Shown piece after piece: positions 1-62,481 of a stretch of 64,000 nucleotides of DNA; the first letter of the stretch is position 1; the number at the start of each line of letters is the position of its first letter. The DNA lies in IMG/VR virus record IMGVR_UViG_3300025011_000036. One strand, given 5' to 3'. This DNA is from an uncultured virus (IMG/VR IMGVR_UViG_3300025011_000036). Its lineage: Duplodnaviria > Heunggongvirae > Uroviricota > Caudoviricetes. The translations under genes and the position numbers were made by a program. The notes below the pieces were generated by a model. It searched no databases. It was not told the origin of the DNA and saw only the letters and a list, made by a program, of their open reading frames with translations.

Positions 1-351
1 TAGGACATGGCACAAAGCAAAGACTATTGGATATCCGGTAGCCAATGCTGCACAGATGAGAGTTGTGCTAGATGGCTGTCGCTCTACACTACTAGTCATT
101 ACCAAGGATGAGTATTGTCCTTGTCCTGCTCTCCCTGCTCTGCCCTATGGGGTATGTCTGATCTGCCGGACTGACCGGACACTAGGGGTAGGGGGACGGT
201 ACTAGGACCACCGAGGCATGGGGCCGGTATACCCCTCGTATATATGTATACCTATCCCCCTATCTCTCTCATTAATTCATCAACCATGAATACCTAAACC
301 TCTCCTACAAAAACATAATCCACAAGTATATTCATACGAACACTTCCTAAT

Positions 352-418
352 AAACTCAATACATAAAGCATAACTCCAACATAAGCATGAACCCCAAACA
401 TAAAGCAAAGCCCAATAC
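352..418 (+). repeat. Three to four imperfect ~18-nt tandem repeats (aactc/ccaa..cataa(a)gca)
   Basis: aactcaatacataaagca / taactccaacataagca / tgaaccccaaacataaagca / aagcccaatac. Confidence 0.6.
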
Positions 419-626
419 CGCATTCCAAATTTTGCGCGCTCAATTTTTATATATTTTTAGTAATGCCCTTTGCGAGAGTGAGGGGTGTTTGACGTTGGAA
501 TGGAACGACGTAAGCAAGACCCAAGAGAACTACTCTTAGTGTGACGACAAGCCAAAACCCTGTACCCCTTGGGGGAGTAAGGAAATATAGAGGTTGTGAA
601 TTATCACACTTGAAACGGCTAAGGCG

Positions 627-1232
627 GTGATGAAATTGGACGAAAAGTCTACAAAGTATTTTCAAAGGGATGTCAATGCGGTCATTATGCCAGTTATGTT
701 TAGTAGGGAAAGACTGGGTAACGGGAGGGAATACATCACGGCTACCGACCCTGATACCGATAGGATTCTCTATGGATTCTTTAATAAATATCGTCCTCCT
801 AAACCAGCCAAGGTTATCGAACTTGGTGTAGAGGGAGAACTGGATTCTGAGAAAAAGCCAAAGAAGAAGAGTTCCGGAAACAAGCTCACCTATGCCAAGT
901 TGTACATCAGTGAGATACACAAGTACCCAAAGGATAAATTGAGTTATGAGTACGCTGGGATGTGCATGCACTTGGCAACCTATATCGAGTGGCATGATGG
1001 AAGTCTAGTCGTCGGTACTGGCAAGCGAAGGAAGCTAATGGAACGCAAGGACATATCAAAGGAGTTGGGGGTTAGTGATTCCACAACCAGGAGATTCGTT
1101 GCCAAGCTCGAAGAGTTGAAGTTAATCTCCAAGGTTGGGGATTCCTATAAGATGATTGGTAAGTTATTCGGCAAGGGAAAGGAGATAAATGTTACTCCTG
1201 ATATTCCAATGAAGGGAGATGTTGTGCCTTGA
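627..1232 (+). CDS. HTH DNA-binding protein, RepL/MarR-like C-terminus
   Basis: C-terminal wHTH 'RKDISKELGVSDSTTRRFVAKLEELKLI'. Confidence 0.6.
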   Translation: MMKLDEKSTKYFQRDVNAVIMPVMFSRERLGNGREYITATDPDTDRILYGFFNKYRPPKPAKVIELGVEGELDSEKKPKKKSSGNKLTYAKLYISEIHKYPKDKLSYEYAGMCMHLATYIEWHDGSLVVGTGKRRKLMERKDISKELGVSDSTTRRFVAKLEELKLISKVGDSYKMIGKLFGKGKEINVTPDIPMKGDVVP

Positions 1233-1399
1233 AAAATCCAAAGGAAGTCCTAAAAGTTGTAGTTGAATTTGATGAATACGGATTACCTAAACTGCCTGGT
1301 GATGGCGAGTATCCAGAGTGGGTTGCTTATGCGATACAAGAGTGGAGAACTTCATTGATATCAGAGAAGAAGGCTTTGGGATTAAGTATCCCCGAATAA
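1229..1399 (+). CDS. Small hypothetical protein (56 aa)
   Basis: TTG start overlapping upstream stop, preceded by AAGGGAG; fills the gap exactly. Confidence 0.5.
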   Translation: MKNPKEVLKVVVEFDEYGLPKLPGDGEYPEWVAYAIQEWRTSLISEKKALGLSIPE

Positions 1400-1414
1400 T
1401 TAAATAAAGAGGAG

Positions 1415-2146
1415 TTGGCTTTAGATATGCCGATTAGAAGAGAAAAGATTACAACGTATGAACAGGCGTTTAGATTAATTCATGTTTCGGTGACAGGAAA
1501 AGCAATGTTTATAGTTAAGGATTTAGAGAAACAGGGACACAATGAGAAGAGTATTTCTTTTGCAATATGGAAGTCGTCGGAAAAACTATGCGGATTAAGA
1601 AATGACCCAAGGTTTGAGAGTATTTTTATTAACGAGATAAGAAAGTGGTCATGGCCTAGCGGTGATCCTCGATGGAAAGAGTTTCACAAGAAAAAAGAAG
1701 AAGAACTTAAAGCCATTGAATTAGATAAAATTGAAAAAAAGAGAAGAAATCAGGAACAATCTTACAAAAAGAGATATCCTGGTTTTATTTATTTTATACA
1801 GGGTGAATCCGGTGGTTCCGTAAAGATTGGATATGCCGCAGATATTACAAAGCGGATAAAGACATTACAGACAGGTTTCCCAGAAACTCTAATTATCGTT
1901 AAATCATTTCCGGGGAACATAAGCGATGAGGGCGGATTCCATGAAGAGTTTAAGGATTTTCGCATAAGGGGCGAGTGGTTTGATCCCATAGTATTGGAGA
2001 GTGCCGATATGGTTGTTGGTAAGATCCAAAAGGATAAGCAGTTTTGCTGCAAAAAGTGTGGTGGAGAGGAGTTAATGAATATCTTCGATGAAATGGGATT
2101 AGTTGGACGCGCTTGTGTGAGGTGTGGATTATTGGTGAAAGCTTAA
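1415..2146 (+). CDS. GIY-YIG family nuclease (T5orf172/MUG113-like)
   Basis: 'GFIYFIQ...VKIGYA..ITKRIKTLQTG...RIRGEWF'. Confidence 0.8.
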   Translation: MALDMPIRREKITTYEQAFRLIHVSVTGKAMFIVKDLEKQGHNEKSISFAIWKSSEKLCGLRNDPRFESIFINEIRKWSWPSGDPRWKEFHKKKEEELKAIELDKIEKKRRNQEQSYKKRYPGFIYFIQGESGGSVKIGYAADITKRIKTLQTGFPETLIIVKSFPGNISDEGGFHEEFKDFRIRGEWFDPIVLESADMVVGKIQKDKQFCCKKCGGEELMNIFDEMGLVGRACVRCGLLVKA

Positions 2147-36006: not shown

Positions 36007-36750
36007 ATGAGGACGATTGATTATCCAACCAAAACTCAGGAAGAATATGACCAAAGCTGGCTTGAGCGCAGGAAATTAAGAACGGATAACAAAGCCCTTC
36101 ACAGTTCTAAAGAGAGCGTTAAGGATGATGAATTATCCACAGAAATACTTAATTACTGGAACTCAAAAGGAATAATTGTTCATCGTAAATACTCAAAAAG
36201 AACGCCACTTATACTAAGAAAAATAATTAAGGATTACTCTAAGGAAGAGATATTAAAAGCAATTGATAATTATGTAACAGTTATCAACGATAATAAATAT
36301 TTGTTTGATTACAAATGGAGCCTTGAAACATTTTTGCAAAAACCAAACGCTTTTCCTGATTTTGTAGATGGAGGAAGCAAGTGGTTAAGTTATCTGGCGT
36401 CTATAACCATAAAAGACAAACCTAGAAAAGAGCAACCGACTTTAATTATTGGACCGAATGATAAGGTTATAATTGCCAGTAGCGACTTTCATTCTATTGA
36501 AGAATCATACTTAGCGATGATTGACGCTTTTAACCGTATGCCATACGGTGAATACTTACAGACTTCTCATTGGTTACATTTTAAAGGAGAAGCATTGAAA
36601 GATGCAGGTTTTAAATGCCGAACGTGTTGCAGTAAAGAAACTGTCCTGAATGTACATCACAATAATTATAGTAATCGCGGTCGAGAGACATTTAATGACG
36701 TTGTTGTGTTATGCGAAGTATGCCACGCCAAATTTCATAATAAAGAATAA
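36007..36750 (+). CDS. Phage initiator-like helical domain fused to HNH nuclease domain
   Basis: 'EILNYWNSK...EEILKAIDNY...SLETFL' + 'CRTC...LNVHH..Y...DVVVLCEVCHAKFH'. Confidence 0.65.
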   Translation: MRTIDYPTKTQEEYDQSWLERRKLRTDNKALHSSKESVKDDELSTEILNYWNSKGIIVHRKYSKRTPLILRKIIKDYSKEEILKAIDNYVTVINDNKYLFDYKWSLETFLQKPNAFPDFVDGGSKWLSYLASITIKDKPRKEQPTLIIGPNDKVIIASSDFHSIEESYLAMIDAFNRMPYGEYLQTSHWLHFKGEALKDAGFKCRTCCSKETVLNVHHNNYSNRGRETFNDVVVLCEVCHAKFHNKE

Positions 36751-40817: not shown

Positions 40818-40892
40818 ATTCATCACCACAGGAAATATATTCCACATAGAGGGGTAATACCCTGCTTGCATAAAAAATATTGCCATCAAGTT

Positions 40893-40942
40893 TGTTGTAC
40901 TAATTAATCACTACCAACGGGAAGTGGAGAACTAGTACAACA
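40893..40942. other. Putative attP of the serine integrase
   Basis: 50-bp imperfect inverted repeat TGTTGTACTA...CACT..AGTG...TAGTACAACA directly after the integrase stop. Confidence 0.65.
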
Positions 40943-40944
40943 TA

Positions 40945-42277
40945 TTAAATAAAAAAAATATCAAAATGCTTTTCATTGTCGATCTTAATTTCTTTTATTA
41001 TTCCTCTCCATAGAGTTCTCTTTTCTGTTTTTTTCAAAGTAATATAAATACTCCTGAAATCACTCTGAAGGAAATCCCTAAGTCCCTGTACATCAATTTT
41101 TTCAGATGGAGTCTCGTTATTCTTTAGTTGATCAGTGTACATATCGAAATCCTTTTTATACTCATCAATGTCAATGAGATTGTTTATATAAAGCTCCTTT
41201 AGCCTAGTTAGTTTATTTTTTATTACAGATTTATTAACCTTAGGTTTCTTTTGTTGCTCAACTTTGATTTCATAGTCAACGATATACGAATTTATTTCTT
41301 CTTCAATGTGATTGATTAAATATTCTTCAACGTAGTTCTCGCTAACGGCATATTTACGAGTACACAAACGTCTTTGAACATATTGATAACAACGATAATA
41401 TTGATATTCTTTATATCCATTATGTGTCATCGCTCCGGATAATCGGCTACCGCATTCAGTACAGGTAAGTAAACCGGAAAAGATATAAATTCTGTCGGTT
41501 TGATTTCTACGATAAGTCTTTCTTTTTAATATTTCTTGAACATTATCAAACTGCTTAATTGAAATAAGTGGCTCACAAAAATCTTTAACGTTTTGGAATT
41601 CTCCTTTGTATAGTGAGTTAGAAAGTACCCTTACAACGGAAGAGTAAGATAAATTAACGTCATATTTATCTCGTATATAGGTGATAGTACCCCTTCGGCT
41701 TTGGTTTAGCTCAAAATGATTAAATATTTCTATAACTAACCAAGTATTATCATTGTCATGCACCACATGTTTTTTCTCGATCTTCAGTCCAATTGGGATA
41801 GAACCGGTAATAGCTTCTTTTCGTTTTACTTTATTTTCGAAAACAAATTTGATGCGTTCGCTTGTTCTGTCAGATTCATCTTGAGCCACTGATAGCATGA
41901 TATTAATATGTAGCCTACCACTGGCCGTTGTGGTGTCGTAATTCTCAAGGATAGCCCTCCATCCCACGTTATGCTTATCTAATGTTTCTTGGATTTTATA
42001 ATAATCCTTAACACTTCTAAACCAACGATCCATTTTCAGGAAAATGATCAAGTCAAGTTTTCCGGCCATAACATCGTCTATCATCCTCATAAATTCTTTA
42101 CGGCTACTGTACGCCTTCCTGGCCGTTTGTCCTTCATCTACATATGTATCTACTATTAACATGTCATGCTCTTGCGCATACTTCGTGAGAGCTTCTTTTT
42201 GTGACTGGATGGAATATCCGTGATGAGCCTGTTCCAATGTGCTGTCAAACCCGAATGTATATAGCTACTCGCATCAT
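40945..42277 (-). CDS. Large serine recombinase (integrase), interrupted by 4-nt TGAC insert at the catalytic motif
   Basis: MMRVAIYIRV*; after 4 nt, STLEQAHHGYSIQSQ. Resolvase 'KMDRWFR', recombinase domain, Zn ribbon 'CTECG..YYRC' and coiled coil are intact. Confidence 0.9.
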
Positions 42278-42930
42278 TCAGTGATCATCCCCTTTTTTAT
42301 TCTATGGTGCTCCATTGCATGTTCTCTATGCGACTGGAACAACCTCAAATTTTCTATTTCATTATTTACTTTGTCTTCATCAATATGATGGACAATTTCA
42401 TTATCAGTTAAGTATCTCCCAAGTAATTCCTCCATAACTAGCCTATGCTGGTAAACGTAACCACGATTATCACAATGAGGGTGACTGGGCATTTTAATTT
42501 CTACATAGCCATTTCCCTTAATATGTTTACCTCCTTTCCAGTTTCCGCTATTTTCACCTTTTCTACCGTGTGAAGCCTTTTCTGCCTCTGGCATTACTCT
42601 TCCCTTAGACCAATGGCACCCCCTGGTTTTAATTGTTGCTTTTAGCCTTTCACTTTGTTCTCTCTTGTATTCATCAGTGAATCTCAGGCCATACATCCCA
42701 TTCTTTTCCCCTGATCTGTCATAAATCTTTAACGCTTCTTCCAGACTGCGCGTTTCGATATTATATTTTTTTAAATGACTATGAATGGTCATGGCGGTCA
42801 CATTAAGTAATTTTGCAATATTCGTACATCCTAATTTTTCGTTTGTGTAAAAATTGTTCAAGGTTTCCTTTAGATCTCTTCCTTCGTCCATAAACCTAAT
42901 TTCTAATTTTGATACAGCCATAATATACAT
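42274..42930 (-). CDS. HNH homing endonuclease (NUMOD3-like + HNH_3)
   Basis: 'GEKNGMYG', 'NWKGG', 'YVYQHRLVME..LGRYL...EIVHHIDEDKVNN.IENL'. Confidence 0.88.
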   Translation of the reverse strand: MYIMAVSKLEIRFMDEGRDLKETLNNFYTNEKLGCTNIAKLLNVTAMTIHSHLKKYNIETRSLEEALKIYDRSGEKNGMYGLRFTDEYKREQSERLKATIKTRGCHWSKGRVMPEAEKASHGRKGENSGNWKGGKHIKGNGYVEIKMPSHPHCDNRGYVYQHRLVMEELLGRYLTDNEIVHHIDEDKVNNEIENLRLFQSHREHAMEHHRIKKGMITE

Positions 42931-42981
42931 CCCTTTTGGTTCACACTCTAATATATATTAGAGCATTTTATGATTATATAA

Positions 42982-43020
42982 TCAAGTGCTTACCCGAATG
43001 TAGACGGCTGTTCTAATCAT
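42982..43020 (-). pseudogene. Orphan 5' fragment of the integrase: MIRTAVYIRVST*
   Basis: Strong AAGGAG SD; encodes the canonical YxRVST motif, then TGA. Confidence 0.8.
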
Positions 43021-43062
43021 AAAAAATCTCCTTACCTAAATTTTATGTAAATGACATTACCG

Positions 43063-43485
43063 CTACGCTCTTTTAGCCTGGCTGACGTACTCTTCTCTTG
43101 CAGCAGCCTCTTCGTCTAATTTAAGCTCGACAATGCCTAGTACCTTCATTTGGTTGTCGTGGGATAGTTTACGCCATGAAGTGATTAGTTTTTGTTCGTC
43201 GTTGGATAGCTCAATAGATGGGCTTTCATGCACACAACTTTTTTCAGCTCCTAAAAGCCATGCGATATCAACGTCGAGTGCATCTGCGAATTCGTTTAAC
43301 TTAGACGTTGTAGCGTCTTCCACTTTCCCGGATTCGTACTTAGATACGCTTCCCTCGGAAAGATTAACCTTTAGTCCTAGTTGTTTCTGGGTTAGAGATA
43401 GGATCTTTCGCCTTGACCTTATCCTACTACCTATTTTTACATAATTTAGAAGAACCATTCCATTACCCCCATTTCTTAGCAACAT
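43063..43485 (-). CDS. CI-like repressor (XRE HTH); start may be 43458
   Basis: 'LTQKQLG..VNLSEGSVSKYESG...FADALDVDIAWLLG'; divergent from cro. Confidence 0.85.
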   Translation of the reverse strand: MLLRNGGNGMVLLNYVKIGSRIRSRRKILSLTQKQLGLKVNLSEGSVSKYESGKVEDATTSKLNEFADALDVDIAWLLGAEKSCVHESPSIELSNDEQKLITSWRKLSHDNQMKVLGIVELKLDEEAAAREEYVSQAKRA

Positions 43486-43628
43486 AATACAATAAATTTT
43501 CGTCTAAATCAATATTATTATGAAAAATCCTGTAAATATTTCGTTTGGCTATTGATTTTTAAATACTCAAATGATATATTTACTTTAGAAACTTTCGTTG
43601 AAAGAAAGTGCAAAAAGGGGGGAACGAA

Positions 43629-43891: not shown

Positions 43892-44677
43892 TTGGTAATT
43901 ACATCAAAGCTAGTTCAGGGTGGAAAATTCAGGGTATTAGAAAGCGGAGTTATATACAAAATTAAAGACGGCAAGGAAACATTGGCGAACATTGTTATGA
44001 CCACTAGGCTTAAAAAATATGGGATTGTAAGTTTTACCGAAAATTCCAAGCAGAAACATTATTATGTCCATAGATTAGTTGCCGAAGCATTTTGCGAAAA
44101 CCCAAACAACTATCAACAGGTTAACCATTTAGACGGGAACACGCTAAACAATATTCCAAGTAATTTGGAATGGTGTACCCCAAGTCAAAATATTATCCAT
44201 GCATACAAAACCGGATTAATAGACCGAATCAAATATACCGAACCATGCCAAGTATGTGGTCAGCCAACTCACTCAAAGGATGGAGTGTGTTCAATATGTA
44301 ATCGAGAGATGTTGAGTCAAGCACATACAGACGGTGCTTTGTCAGAGTTAAGAGAAAGGCTATCGATTATAAATCCAGAGTCACTGAACCAAAGACAAGC
44401 TGAAATCTTATCACTTAGACTAGAAGGTAAGACGCTTCAAGAAATAGGCGATAAATTCAAAATGACCAGGCAAGGTGTGGATCAAATCATAGGGGGCTTG
44501 CTAGTAAGAAGTATCTCTCCGATTAAAAAAAATCACTTAATTGGGAAAGAGCGTAAAAGACTGTTAGCAAAGATATCAAAGAAAGAGGGCAAGGTTAAGG
44601 CGGCACTCGACATGGTTGAGGAATTAAAAAGGGAAATAAGATCACTTAAGGGATTACTAGCTGAATTTCCGGGATAA
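43892..44677 (+). CDS. HNH endonuclease with C-terminal sigma70-region-4-like HTH
   Basis: 'YVHRLVAEAF...VNHLDGNTLNN..SNLEWCTPSQN' + 'KTLQEIGDKFKMTRQGVDQI'. Confidence 0.85.
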   Translation: MVITSKLVQGGKFRVLESGVIYKIKDGKETLANIVMTTRLKKYGIVSFTENSKQKHYYVHRLVAEAFCENPNNYQQVNHLDGNTLNNIPSNLEWCTPSQNIIHAYKTGLIDRIKYTEPCQVCGQPTHSKDGVCSICNREMLSQAHTDGALSELRERLSIINPESLNQRQAEILSLRLEGKTLQEIGDKFKMTRQGVDQIIGGLLVRSISPIKKNHLIGKERKRLLAKISKKEGKVKAALDMVEELKREIRSLKGLLAEFPG

Positions 44678-50225: not shown

Positions 50226-52229
50226 ATGAAAACAATTAAACTTCAATCGTTATCTCTTAAAGATTTCAAAGGGGTAGAGAATTTTACCCTTGAATTAAAC
50301 GGAAAAAACGCTGACATTTTCGGTAAAAATGCAACAGGGAAAAGTACACTTTTTGATAGTAGCCAGTGGCTTCTTTTCGGGAAAGATTCATCAGGTCGCG
50401 CAGACTATCAGATAAAACCGCAGGATGAGGACGGAAACGAGATCCATCGCTTGGATTGCATTGTCGAAGGAGTTTTCCTTGTTGATAATAATAAGCTCAA
50501 GCTCAAGCGTCAACTCTCTGAAAAATGGGTGAAGAAACAGGGAACCCAAGTGAAAGAGTTTACTGGCAATGAAACAAAATATTGGGTCAACGATGTCCCG
50601 GTAAAAGCCAAAGACTATACTCTTGAAATCAACATGCTCATAAAGGAAAATATCTTCAAACTCCTGACAAATCCCCTCTTTTTTAATACCAATGAGAAGG
50701 GATTTGGATGGCAGGAACGGAGAAAGATTCTGTTTGAGATATGCGGTGATGTGTCGGATTCGGACGTTATTGATTCGCTAGTTTCCGTAGGCGACAAAAG
50801 TATGTTGGATTTACAAATGGTCATTAACTCCGGCAGGACAATTGAACAACACAAATTAGTAGTTTCGGAGAAGATTAAAAGCACTAAATCCCAAATGGAT
50901 GGGATACCATCACGGATCAATGAGCAACAACGAAATATCACAGAAGATGTCACTGACTACACAGCAATAGAAACCTCGCTACAAGCCCATGGAGACACTT
51001 TGCAAGCGATTGAATTAGAACTAGCTATGAACGCCAAGGGGGCTAGTTTATACCGCCAGAAACAGCAACAGGCGTATAAGTTGCAGGGCGAATTGGATGC
51101 TCGAAAAAAGGATCTCGATAACTACTCTTTGTCTGGACTAAAAAAGGCAATTGAGGAAAAATCGCAACTCGAAGGTGAGAGATACCTTATATCCACAGAG
51201 GTTAAGAAGTTGGGTTCTAATTCCGAATTAAGGTCCATGGAGCTAGAAAATATAGAAAAGTTAATTATCGAACTCCGTAAAACATGGGCAGAGGAAAACG
51301 CCAAACAATTCATTGCCCCTGATGGGTTTAGCTGCCCAACTTGCGAACAATCACTACCCGAAGGTAAGGCGCAAGAGAAGATTGATAAGTTAAAGGAAAA
51401 CTTTGACAAGAATAAAAATCAGGTTATCTCCGGTGTTCGTAAACAGGGTACAGATGCAGGAAGTAGAGCTGAATTCCTTAATAAAGAGAAAACGTTAGAT
51501 GCTGAGATTTTAACCAAACACGAAACTAGATTAACTCAAATATACGAGAGAATTGTCGAGTTAGAAAATGACATAGAGCGCGAGAAAACTGAACACGGCA
51601 ACGGATACAACTATTCTCTTGATTTGAAATATTCAAGTCTGACTGACGAACTCCAAGCCTTGCAAGTCGAACTTGACAAGCCTATCGAAGATACAACTTC
51701 CGACCTTCTGTATAAAAAGCAAGAAACAGCTTCCTTAATCGAATGGCTAAACAGAACACTCAACCAAAAGGAAGTTATCGAAAAAGCAAAACTTCGTATC
51801 GAAGAACTCAAGGCAGAAGAAAGCAAATTAGCTGCCGAAATAAACAGCTATGAGCGTCAAGACTATCTAATTAAGCAATTCACAACTGCAAAGGTCAAGA
51901 TACTTGAGGATTCGATTAACAACCGGTTTAAGACGGTTAAATTCAAGCTATTCGACACGCTGAATGATGGGACGGAAAAAGAAGTCTGCCGTACGTTAGT
52001 TAATACGAATGGCGTTTGGGTTGAATTTGATGGGGCGAATAACGGTGGCAAAATTGTAGCTGGTCTTTCGATTATTGAAATGTTGTCGGAATACTACGGG
52101 GTATCCTGCCCGATTTTCATTGATAATTTTGAGTCAGTCACGGGTACTGTGGATGTAAACTCGCAAGTTATTAAGCTCATTGTGAGTGCGGAAGATGAAA
52201 AATTAAGAGTAGTGGGGAATAAAGCATGA
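50226..52229 (+). CDS. SMC/Rad50-like AAA ATPase
   Basis: Walker A 'GKNATGKST', Zn hook CPTC, coiled coil, 'PIFIDNFES'. Confidence 0.85.
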   Translation: MKTIKLQSLSLKDFKGVENFTLELNGKNADIFGKNATGKSTLFDSSQWLLFGKDSSGRADYQIKPQDEDGNEIHRLDCIVEGVFLVDNNKLKLKRQLSEKWVKKQGTQVKEFTGNETKYWVNDVPVKAKDYTLEINMLIKENIFKLLTNPLFFNTNEKGFGWQERRKILFEICGDVSDSDVIDSLVSVGDKSMLDLQMVINSGRTIEQHKLVVSEKIKSTKSQMDGIPSRINEQQRNITEDVTDYTAIETSLQAHGDTLQAIELELAMNAKGASLYRQKQQQAYKLQGELDARKKDLDNYSLSGLKKAIEEKSQLEGERYLISTEVKKLGSNSELRSMELENIEKLIIELRKTWAEENAKQFIAPDGFSCPTCEQSLPEGKAQEKIDKLKENFDKNKNQVISGVRKQGTDAGSRAEFLNKEKTLDAEILTKHETRLTQIYERIVELENDIEREKTEHGNGYNYSLDLKYSSLTDELQALQVELDKPIEDTTSDLLYKKQETASLIEWLNRTLNQKEVIEKAKLRIEELKAEESKLAAEINSYERQDYLIKQFTTAKVKILEDSINNRFKTVKFKLFDTLNDGTEKEVCRTLVNTNGVWVEFDGANNGGKIVAGLSIIEMLSEYYGVSCPIFIDNFESVTGTVDVNSQVIKLIVSAEDEKLRVVGNKA

Positions 52230-53233
52230 CAACAGATATAGCGATAAATGAACAAACCATGGCAGAACGATTTATGGGCAAGGTAACGGAATTATTTCAA
52301 GGAAGCGTAGGGGAGATTGTCCTAACTAATTTCCAAAAACGTCTGATCCAAAACTATTTCATCGTTGCCGATATGACCCTTAAAACTGCTGAAGAGAAGC
52401 GTAAAAAGAAAACCAAGAACCAGGACCCCTTGCCTATTGTTTGGGCAAATATCGATATGGAGGAACTTTCCCAAAACGTTGTAGCTGCCGCGAGGATTGG
52501 TTGGGACCCGCAACAGGACAACCATGTCAGTCTTATCCCATTTAAGAAGAATGGCGTGGCTAAATATGGATTAACCTTTATGCCTGGGTATCGAGGAATT
52601 GAACTAAAGGCAGTTAAATACGGCCTAGATGCTCCAAATGTTATTGTTGAACTCGTTTACTCTACCGACAAATTCAAATCTATCAAAAAGAGTCACACCA
52701 ATAAGGTTGAGTTTTATGAGTTTGAAATTACCAACGACTTTGACCGGGGCCAGTTAGTGGGTGGGTTTTATTACCACTCATTCCCTGATAATCCAGAGAA
52801 AAATAAGCTTGTTGTTTTATCGATAAAGGACATCGAAAAAAGAAAGCCCAAGTATGCCTCAGTTGAATTTTGGGGTGGGGAAAAGGACGTTTGGGATAAC
52901 GGTAAAAAAGTCGGCAGGGAAACCATAGAGGGATGGCACGACAAGATGTGCTATAAGACAATTTACCGGGCCGCCTATAAAGACATCACAATCGACAGTC
53001 AAAAGATTGATGACGATTATATGCGACTAAATCAACTTGAAAACGAATTCAAAGAGGCCGAAGTAGAACAAACGATTGTGGAAAACGCTAACAATGGCAA
53101 TGTTGTTGATATCGTATCCGAAGACGTTCCGAACGACCACGAAAATGAAGAAGGTATTACTGATGCTGAGATAGTTGAGATGGATAAGTTGGCTGAAGAG
53201 TTGAACAATCCACCAACAGGGCCGGGATTCTAG
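52226..53233 (+). CDS. recT: RecT-family single-strand annealing protein
   Basis: 'VSLIPF...GYRG...ELVYSTD.F...KMCYKT'; context. Confidence 0.75.
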   Translation: MTTDIAINEQTMAERFMGKVTELFQGSVGEIVLTNFQKRLIQNYFIVADMTLKTAEEKRKKKTKNQDPLPIVWANIDMEELSQNVVAAARIGWDPQQDNHVSLIPFKKNGVAKYGLTFMPGYRGIELKAVKYGLDAPNVIVELVYSTDKFKSIKKSHTNKVEFYEFEITNDFDRGQLVGGFYYHSFPDNPEKNKLVVLSIKDIEKRKPKYASVEFWGGEKDVWDNGKKVGRETIEGWHDKMCYKTIYRAAYKDITIDSQKIDDDYMRLNQLENEFKEAEVEQTIVENANNGNVVDIVSEDVPNDHENEEGITDAEIVEMDKLAEELNNPPTGPGF

Positions 53234-55771: not shown

Positions 55772-56173
55772 TTGAATAAGATTGAGCAAAGGTTCCAAGA
55801 TGCGTACGATGAATTGGTTAATGAAGATCCTGAATTTCCGGCAATTGTGGAACTTTTAAGTCAAGTTGTGATTGGAATCTATAAAGTTGACTTTGTTTAT
55901 GAAAAGTGTGTCATCGAGATAGATGGACATGAATTTCACAAAAGCAAAGAACAACGAGAGAAGGATTACAAGAGAGAAAGGTATTTAATGCGCCAAGGAT
56001 ATACAGTGATACGTTATATGGGTACTGAAGTATTTTTAAATCCAAAAGAATGCGTGACGGAGGCCATTGATCTTGCTAACGAAATAACACGCAGGGATAT
56101 TTCTGACTTTCTCAACGGGTATGATGAGGGTTTTGGGAGAGGAATGGAAATGTTAAATAATGCAGGAAGGTGA
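55772..56173 (+). CDS. DUF559/Vsr-like endonuclease
   Basis: 'YKVDF....VIEIDGHEFH...D.KRERYL...GYTVIRY.G'. Confidence 0.8.
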   Translation: MNKIEQRFQDAYDELVNEDPEFPAIVELLSQVVIGIYKVDFVYEKCVIEIDGHEFHKSKEQREKDYKRERYLMRQGYTVIRYMGTEVFLNPKECVTEAIDLANEITRRDISDFLNGYDEGFGRGMEMLNNAGR

Positions 56174-62246: not shown

Positions 62247-62481
62247 TTATTATAGACAGCAATATTTGTCCAGAATGTGGACAAAGGCTTAGGAATGAAG
62301 GAGGATGCGTCGTATGCCCAGTGTGCTTTTGGTCGCCTTGCCTTTAATCAGGAGTGGTTTGAGTATTGGCTTATTTGCACTCAGTCTTGGATTATGGATA
62401 ACTAACAATGTTTCTGACGCAATATTTACAGGCTTAGTGGCGTTGTATATTAGACCAGAAGAATAGAAAGGGGAAAATAGG

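Follow-up and report, generated by a model that had tools for sequence, protein, structure and literature searches.

We analyzed a 64,000-nt stretch of DNA from an uncultured virus of the Caudoviricetes (IMG/VR record IMGVR_UViG_3300025011_000036), referred to here at its full length as the window, and focused on a locus at which a gene for an HNH endonuclease interrupts the beginning of a large serine integrase gene. All features of this locus lie on the minus strand and are described in the direction of transcription. The first is copy 1 (42982..43033), which consists of the resident integrase ribosome site and the first 12 codons of the gene: a strong AAGGAG (43033-43028) is followed by a mini open reading frame (ORF) encoding MIRTAVYIRVST (43020-42982), whose TGA stop lies at 42984-42982. 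A degenerate recombinase start that has no start codon (copy 3, 42938..42964) sits immediately 5' of the ribosome site of the endonuclease gene. This gene (42274..42921) encodes 215 aa from MAVSKLE, and its frame is also open from an upstream ATG at 42930. The endonuclease stop (ATGA) overlaps the ATGATG of a second, cassette-borne integrase start (copy 2, 42245..42277), which reads MMRVAIYIRV and then ends in TGA. That TGA and one further base, C, form a TGAC (42244..42247) that shifts copy 2 out of the frame of the integrase body (40945..42243; STLEQAHHGYS...). The insert is flanked by the 5-bp direct repeat AGCAC, whose left copy lies at 42986..42990 and whose right copy, at 42239..42243, forms the Ser-Thr codons that open the body; the insert comprises 742 nt plus the 5-bp duplication, and the repeat-to-repeat distance is 747 nt. 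Two perfect palindromes, one of 14 bp (TGATTATATAATCA, 42971..42984) that opens with the TGA stop of copy 1 and one of 18 bp (CTCTAATATATATTAGAG, 42946..42963) that overlies copy 3, precede the endonuclease gene. A first-pass annotation made from the sequence alone had described the ribosome site, mini-ORF, palindromes, HNH gene, copy 2, TGAC, and repeats, and all of them were recovered on the minus strand at the positions it gave; copy 3 was not among the features it listed.

The integrase body has the complete domain set of a large serine recombinase, with resolvase catalytic (Pfam Resolvase PF00239, E value 2.7e-25), recombinase (Recombinase PF07508, 1.5e-4), and zinc ribbon (Zn_ribbon_recom PF13408, 5.9e-12) domains, and it matches PHROG integrase at 4.5e-90. 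Its nearest relative is 60% identical. The body is open for 431 codons (AGC ACA TTG GAA... to 40945), but no usable start precedes the codon for the catalytic Ser. In serine recombinases, the Arg and Ser of the Y-x-R-x-S motif are the catalytic residues. Among the 119 other proteins in the best 120 matches to the integrase, 114 have this motif within their first 60 residues, mostly as AALYIRVS, and the remaining five have either a later start or a long leader. In none of the 114 does the Arg-to-Ser interval contain an additional residue. The CGG (Arg) of copy 2 and the AGC (Ser) of the body stand seven bases apart in the window, and only an exact 4-nt skip restores the motif. No start codon reaches Y-x-R-x-S in a single frame, as copies 1 and 2 both end in TGA. 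Because no frame joins a start codon to the R-x-S motif, the integrase is most likely inactive unless the insert is lost. The frame of the body first offers a start at 42237, a TTG that closely follows the Ser codon AGC and lies 7 nt past the stop of copy 2. This TTG could yield an integrase without its first 13 residues, including the catalytic Ser, and DNA binding could still be possible for this shortened protein. In gene-caller output, the integrase starts at a later ATG, giving a product of 405 aa.

The scan of 83 window ORFs against Pfam and PHROG turned up neither a second integrase nor a partition gene. If the lack of a second integrase holds for the whole genome, the phage would be unable to integrate. 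An inverted repeat, GTTGTACTA ... TAGTACAAC, at 40890-40944 (minus strand) flanks about 30 nt just 3' of the integrase stop and is a candidate attP.

The relationship among the start copies was examined with a start profile, a position-specific scoring matrix (PSSM) built from the 114 relatives and scanned over the six frames of the window. Copy 2 ranked first (20.8), copy 1 second (15.9), and copy 3 fourth (15.0). The two best matches in the window, copies 1 and 2, are on the same strand and 745 nt apart, with the HNH gene between them. They are alike at 22 of 30 bases (counted by eye) and spell the Arg of codon 3 differently (AGA versus CGA). A search of the window with TACATTCGGGT returned two exact copies, one in each of these starts (42992-43002 and 42249-42259), plus one site with one mismatch elsewhere. 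The third-ranked PSSM match (15.6) was rejected as a chance hit; it falls in a small hydrophobic ORF (62305-62466, ending ...LVALYIRPEE), inside an unrelated membrane-like peptide.

The PSSM score of copy 3 alone falls within the window-wide chance range, and the case for this copy comes from direct comparison with other starts. Its segment at 42955-42938 agrees at 16 of 18 bases with the integrase start of L038, a viral contig described below, and 0 of 300 shuffles reach that level. Agreement with the start in another such contig, L116, is 15/18 (equaled by 1 of 300 shuffles), and with copy 2 it is 14/18 (0 of 300). When the sequences are aligned in register, copy 3 reads ALIYIRV-TGA-ACC where L038 has ...YIRV-TCA-ACC. 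These comparisons indicate that the cassette carries a fossil start upstream of the nuclease besides the spare start downstream of it. A TGA stands directly after all four fossil ends, that is, copies 1, 2, and 3 of the window and the upstream copy of a metagenome contig, L031; in copies 2 and 3 this TGA occupies the position of the Ser codon. The Ser-Thr pair is spelled AGC AC in copy 1 (AGC ACT) and in the integrase body (AGC ACA), and the cassette-side copies have TCN or TGA.

The palindromes were rejected as candidates for repeated operators, each being found only once in the window, and the 14-bp palindrome is not beyond chance on its own, with 49 of 100 shuffles giving at least one match at two or fewer mismatches. 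A promoter and terminator scan returned sites that were no more numerous than in shuffles.

The protein encoded by the insert is a predicted nuclease with an N-terminal helix-turn-helix (HTH) region and an HNH_3 domain (Pfam PF13392, E value 3.3e-10, profile positions 2 to 45 of 46), and it matches 13 PHROG HNH families. The catalytic motif is intact, and the columns of H178, H179, N187, N191, H201, and H205 are invariant across seven relatives. Close relatives are few, the closest being the 60% identical pair P0002 and P0003, together with P0004 (from Brevibacillus thermoruber), over a range of 49 to 60% identity; the entry G001 is a 100% identical fragment of the window's own phage. Viral contigs searched with the HNH protein of the window or with that of L031 returned the window's own phage or no match. 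Annotated phages and plasmids contained no close relative of the locus or of the HNH protein and only distant HNH domains, and the protein has no significant sequence match among solved structures. None of the distant HNH relatives with available context (L026, L027, L036, and the annotated phage record H4) adjoins a recombinase, and a profile search of genome contigs with the HNH alignment gave four distant matches, none of them beside a recombinase.

The same arrangement of nuclease and recombinase was found in two other lineages. In L031, a good ribosome site precedes a fossil start, MNVAVYSRVSSED, that is closed by TGA; this is followed by an HNH gene whose product is 47% identical to that of the window and then by an intact serine recombinase start reading ..RVAAYLRVSSDDQ (in longer form ...RVAAYLRVSSDDQVERK...). 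The L031 recombinase and the window integrase belong to different subfamilies, and therefore it is the architecture that recurs and not the locus. A third fossil copy in L031 was not supported, since the candidate matched at 10 of 18 bases, a level that 187 of 300 shuffles also attained, and a repeat search of L031 yielded only short families that were not informative. In L031, a divergently oriented gene (113-1975, minus strand) upstream of the fossil start encodes a 620-aa protein with an N-terminal P-loop-like motif, GQNSSGKST, and the L031 locus may be a defense island or mobile element rather than a phage.

The other lineage is represented by the viral contigs L038, L116, and L117, in which an intact large serine integrase follows the HNH gene, its ATG 1 nt (L038) or 4 nt (L116 and L117) past the HNH stop and its product beginning M[QS]KVA[VI]YIRVSTTAQ.... 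The L038 HNH protein is 34% identical to that of the window and has the same domain order. No upstream fossil start was found in L038 or L116. A recombinase start thus lies directly downstream of the HNH gene on the same strand in all three lineages, and judging from these sequences, the normal place of this nuclease subfamily appears to be immediately upstream of serine recombinase genes.

The L038 group also gives a view of the cassette as a polymorphism. Among 80 viral-contig loci that encode relatives of the L038 integrase, tblastn detected the HNH gene in 3; it is missing from each of the 14 other loci whose full-length integrase is 91 to 96% identical. The integrase of an HNH-bearing locus (L195) and that of an HNH-less one (L196) share 72% identity over their first 54 nt and 92% over nt 55-300 and over nt 601-1400; for two HNH-less alleles, identity across that 54-nt segment is 96%. 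Such a pattern marks a nuclease gene that is free-standing and mobile and that travels with, or selects for, altered first codons of its neighbor. An HNH-less allele 92% identical to that of L038 (L209, 1501-1560) has the cassette-type codons TAT ATT AGA GTT TCT at its start; it may have lost the nuclease and kept the co-converted start, or it may be a naturally resistant target. The two HNH-bearing integrases L195 (on the L038 contig) and L234 (on the L116 contig) are 95% identical over nt 55-300 and 73% identical over nt 301-600, and this drop places a mosaic boundary about 300 nt into the integrase gene, beside the nuclease; beyond nt 600, ungapped identity drops further but is unreliable because of indels.

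Fourteen rows from seven studies contain the stretch or part of it, and four runs from four studies were compared with the window as contigs. X5 record 9 covers 41205-43111 and matches the window exactly, X6 records 15 and 16 cover 41878-42636 and 42621-43156, and X8 record 22 covers 41882-42479. The TGAC site is present, unchanged, in three runs of three other studies, and the left junction is present in two runs. Because the contigs from other studies show 0 differences from the window and 0 gaps across the junctions, the split structure is not an assembly error. All four runs compared contain only the HNH-bearing form of this phage. A skipped or deleted joint was seen in none of the four, although contigs drop rare variants and a minority form could escape detection. 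No RNA runs are listed among the rows that contain the stretch. One further contig, X5 record 10 (1,324 nt), matches the window only at 43042-43111 (the last 70 nt of the repressor gene region) with four differences. Its divergence begins at 43042, some 20 nt short of the start of the resident integrase, and it appears to come from a related phage in which another module follows the repressor.

Taking together the directly observed anatomy of the locus with its three start copies, its reproducibility across studies, the recurrent adjacency of HNH and recombinase genes, and the polymorphism and diverged first codons seen in one lineage, we think that a free-standing homing endonuclease gene has probably been copied into codons 11 to 13 (the catalytic Ser-Thr) of the only integrase found in this phage and has left that integrase most likely inactive. 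The resident gene would be copy 1 plus the integrase body, and a 742-nt fragment would have entered at the Ser-Thr codons with duplication of the 5-bp AGCAC. The inserted material would consist, in order, of the TGA that closes copy 1, the older fossil start (copy 3), the nuclease gene, and the spare start (copy 2), which is probably translationally coupled to the nuclease stop. Under this proposal, the nuclease would cut HNH-less integrase alleles at or near the Ser-Thr codons, and repair would copy the nuclease gene along with the integrase start of the donor. Where the upstream flank is non-homologous, the recipient's own start would stay behind as a fossil, and the insert itself may have arrived via break repair with illegitimate joints. 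Repeated invasion would be possible because the spare start would recreate a target, and such rounds could stack fossils. The spare start would normally keep the invaded gene working, as it appears to do in L031 and the L038 group. In the phage of the window, the right joint would have come out of register by four bases, with TGA at the Ser codon, and the integrase would be dead as a result. The simplest reading of the TGAC is that it is the end of the inserted fragment rather than a recoding signal or an insertion into a working start; it could stem from the donor copy as a shortened Ser-Thr, or it could be where another cassette begins.

The first-pass annotation had proposed an intron-less HNH cassette that sits at the RVST codons and brings its own gene start. 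That part of the proposal is borne out: a homing cassette is supported because related HNH genes also lie upstream of recombinases in two other lineages, L031 has a fossil start of its own, and the nuclease is present in only 3 of 80 loci in the L038 group. Several points weigh against the scenario as we have drawn it. The AGCAC repeat and the TGA pattern were spotted only after the data had been inspected, and the right joint can be aligned alternatively as a 4-nt insertion or as the end of a fragment, which are indistinguishable. The DNA context of the HNH-recombinase loci comes from three lineages (the window, L031, and the L038 group), and the cleavage specificity of the nuclease is a prediction. 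Every run carries the same sequence, and no HNH-less allele of this phage was found; since all copies of the phage are identical, decay or selection is not measurable. The integrase body is still open over its whole length and the HNH gene is intact, so the break would have to be recent or the gene still used in some unseen way.

The closest analogue we could identify is the mitochondrial "gene hybrid" produced by mobile endonuclease ORFs (mORFs). Fungal mitochondrial mORFs are described as creating such hybrids in atp6 of Allomyces macrogynus and in atp6, atp9, cox2, and nad3 of Glomus (PMC3630166). The likeness is that an endonuclease ORF enters a conserved gene together with a foreign version of the gene end that it displaces, and the native end persists as a fossil (PMC3630166). 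The endonuclease ORF of the locus described here, like that of L031, lies between two versions of one gene end, one native and the other foreign and diverged; the end in question is the 5' end. The two systems differ in that mORFs leave the invaded gene whole (PMC3630166), whereas the joint in the window is out of frame. They also duplicate the C terminus, with the ORF often in phase with the host gene (PMC3630166), whereas the window duplicates the 5' end, the nuclease is a separate HNH_3 gene, and the host is a phage. By this comparison, the window locus is the 5'-end mirror image of an mORF gene hybrid in a phage.

Intron-less homing in T-even and ICP1 phages offers a second comparison. Both the intron-less homing of free-standing genes such as Seg and Mob and the occurrence of nuclease genes at boundaries of genetic exchange are well documented (PMC10448857). 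The resemblance to the loci described here lies in nuclease genes between or beside conserved genes, in presence/absence polymorphism, and in mosaic boundaries with co-converted flanks (PMC10448857). The difference is that those nuclease genes mostly occupy intergenic positions, and no second copy of a gene start is left behind. A literature search, with subscription journals outside its coverage, returned no report of a homing nuclease or HNH subfamily aimed at serine integrase starts or catalytic codons.

Other explanations for the split gene were weighed against a homing cassette that disabled the integrase. One is a reversible DNA switch, in which rare precise deletion between the AGCAC repeats would restore the integrase in a subpopulation and turn lysogeny on and off stochastically. 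The first-pass annotation had claimed that deleting 747 nt would rebuild the gene, and in silico this does produce an uninterrupted 442-aa ORF that is colinear from residue 1 with all eight relatives tested, so the deletion would yield an intact gene. The phage also encodes a RecT-like annealing protein (52226-53233), a possible helper, and an SbcC-like protein. Five bases are a very short homology for such an event, however, the restored allele would again be a target of the nuclease, there is no evidence of regulation, and no such joint appeared in the contigs of the four runs, with the caveat about rare variants given above. We consider a switch of this kind improbable.

A broader alternative keeps the homing cassette and changes its consequence. 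Here, a class of start-replacing homing cassettes would invade catalytic-Ser codons without killing the integrase, the TGAC would be an immunity mark that is hopped over or removed in some genomes, and the nuclease would hold the lysogeny decision hostage. This version, too, seems to us an unlikely one. The idea that the TGAC is an obligate immunizing or recoding unit, which the first-pass annotation had put forward, found no support: the TGAC is present in one of the three lineages and absent from both others, it is accompanied by no matching take-off and landing codons, and a +1 shift breaks the R-x-S spacing.

The same observations bear on translational recoding, in which copy 2 would be the working start, ribosomes would skip or otherwise recode the TGAC to give MMRVAIYIRV-STLEQ..., and the micro-insert would protect the cassette allele by destroying its target. 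This explanation is attractive in that an exact 4-nt skip gives a 442-aa integrase, again colinear from residue 1 with 8/8 relatives, the insert lies exactly at the presumed target codons, the body is still open, and the TGAC is stable across three studies. A UGA followed by C is also a poor terminator, and, as in known bypassing, a stop directly follows the would-be take-off codon, with UGA after GUU in copy 2 and after ACU in copy 1. The sequence GUU UGA CAG CAC, however, offers no GUN codon after the gap at which the Val tRNA could re-pair, and for this reason we see no mechanistic basis for a ribosome hop. The sole single shift, +1, gives RVDST, with one extra alignment gap against all eight relatives and a spacing not seen in any of the 114 motif-bearing proteins, so a programmed frameshift of the RF2 type would not give a normal colinear product. 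The downstream starts of the other two lineages are intact and have no TGAC. Because copy 3 also reads V-TGA, the TGA looks like a shared fossil feature and not a signal. In phage T4, MobA is a free-standing HNH-type nuclease that travels with a small target-disrupting insert in the neighboring gene 60, in which the gap measures 50 nt, the take-off and landing codons are both GGA, and the nascent peptide carries a signal. The corresponding gap in the window would be 4 nt, lacks a matching codon for landing, and is not present in related cassettes. Recoding is therefore, in our judgment, quite improbable.

RNA splicing would treat the 747 nt between the AGCAC repeats as an intron of an unrecognized kind, with copy 1 joined to the integrase body. 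The joint would be in frame and would produce a normal integrase, and an in-frame stop lies right after the putative 5' splice site upstream of an internal nuclease ORF; both of these features are common in phage introns. Group I introns of Bacillus phages (I-HmuI type) similarly have an HNH ORF that interrupts a conserved gene at catalytic-site codons and an early in-frame stop after the upstream exon. Unlike those introns, the insert yielded neither a ribozyme core nor canonical splice-site nucleotides nor any structural signal, and the relatives of its nuclease are free-standing. No Rfam family, including Intron_gpI, matched 41500-43600 on either strand up to an E value of 10. The fold of the 816-nt RNA has a z score of 0.28, with 11 of 20 shuffles folding at least as well, and only about 90 nt lie outside the nuclease ORF. 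Among the enumerated joints that keep Y-I-R-V-S-T-L-E-Q, none has the U before the 5' site and the G before the 3' site of a group I intron, and no register of the AGCAC repeat has the GUGYG...AY of a group II intron; the sole ORF of the insert encodes an HNH_3 protein and not the reverse transcriptase expected of that class. The downstream copy of L031 is intact, and the nuclease gene of the L038 group is free-standing, because no upstream exon exists there. The earlier view of an intron-less element with no room for a group I or group II ribozyme core is thus upheld; splicing or precise excision at AGCAC, raised at the same time as another kind of switch, finds no support in the Rfam scan, the fold, or the contigs, and splicing in particular is very improbable. 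Finally, the possibility that the extra starts and repeats are chance similarity or an assembly chimera is negligible, because even if short AT-rich motifs recur and the unrelated ORF at 62305-62466 outscores copy 3 with the same PSSM, copies 1 and 2 top the list and flank the HNH gene on one strand, copy 3 passes the shuffle tests, identical contigs come from three other studies, and L031 has the same architecture.

The gene upstream of the locus encodes a cI-like HTH repressor (43063..43485, minus strand; Pfam HTH_3, E value 2.6e-9, and PHROG transcriptional repressor/regulator families). It is the first gene of a lysogeny operon that runs on into the integrase locus. The window contains further nuclease-type genes, namely a T5orf172/MUG113 gene (1415-2146) just upstream of the large terminase, HNH genes at 36007-36750 and 43892-44677, and a DUF559 (Vsr-like) gene at 55772-56173, and one of the extra HNH genes is wedged between a cro-like gene and an antirepressor. 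This genome carries an unusually large number of putative homing nucleases.

The targets of homing endonucleases are known to be the most conserved codons of essential genes. Genome engineering makes wide use of serine integrases, and a natural nuclease that recognizes their catalytic-site codons, together with alleles that escape it, could have practical interest. If our reading of the locus is true, it would account for some of the puzzling mini-ORFs and truncated integrase calls in viral metagenomes and would give the mitochondrial gene hybrid phenomenon a mirror image in phages. It would also mean that a selfish nuclease can turn a temperate phage into a non-integrating one.

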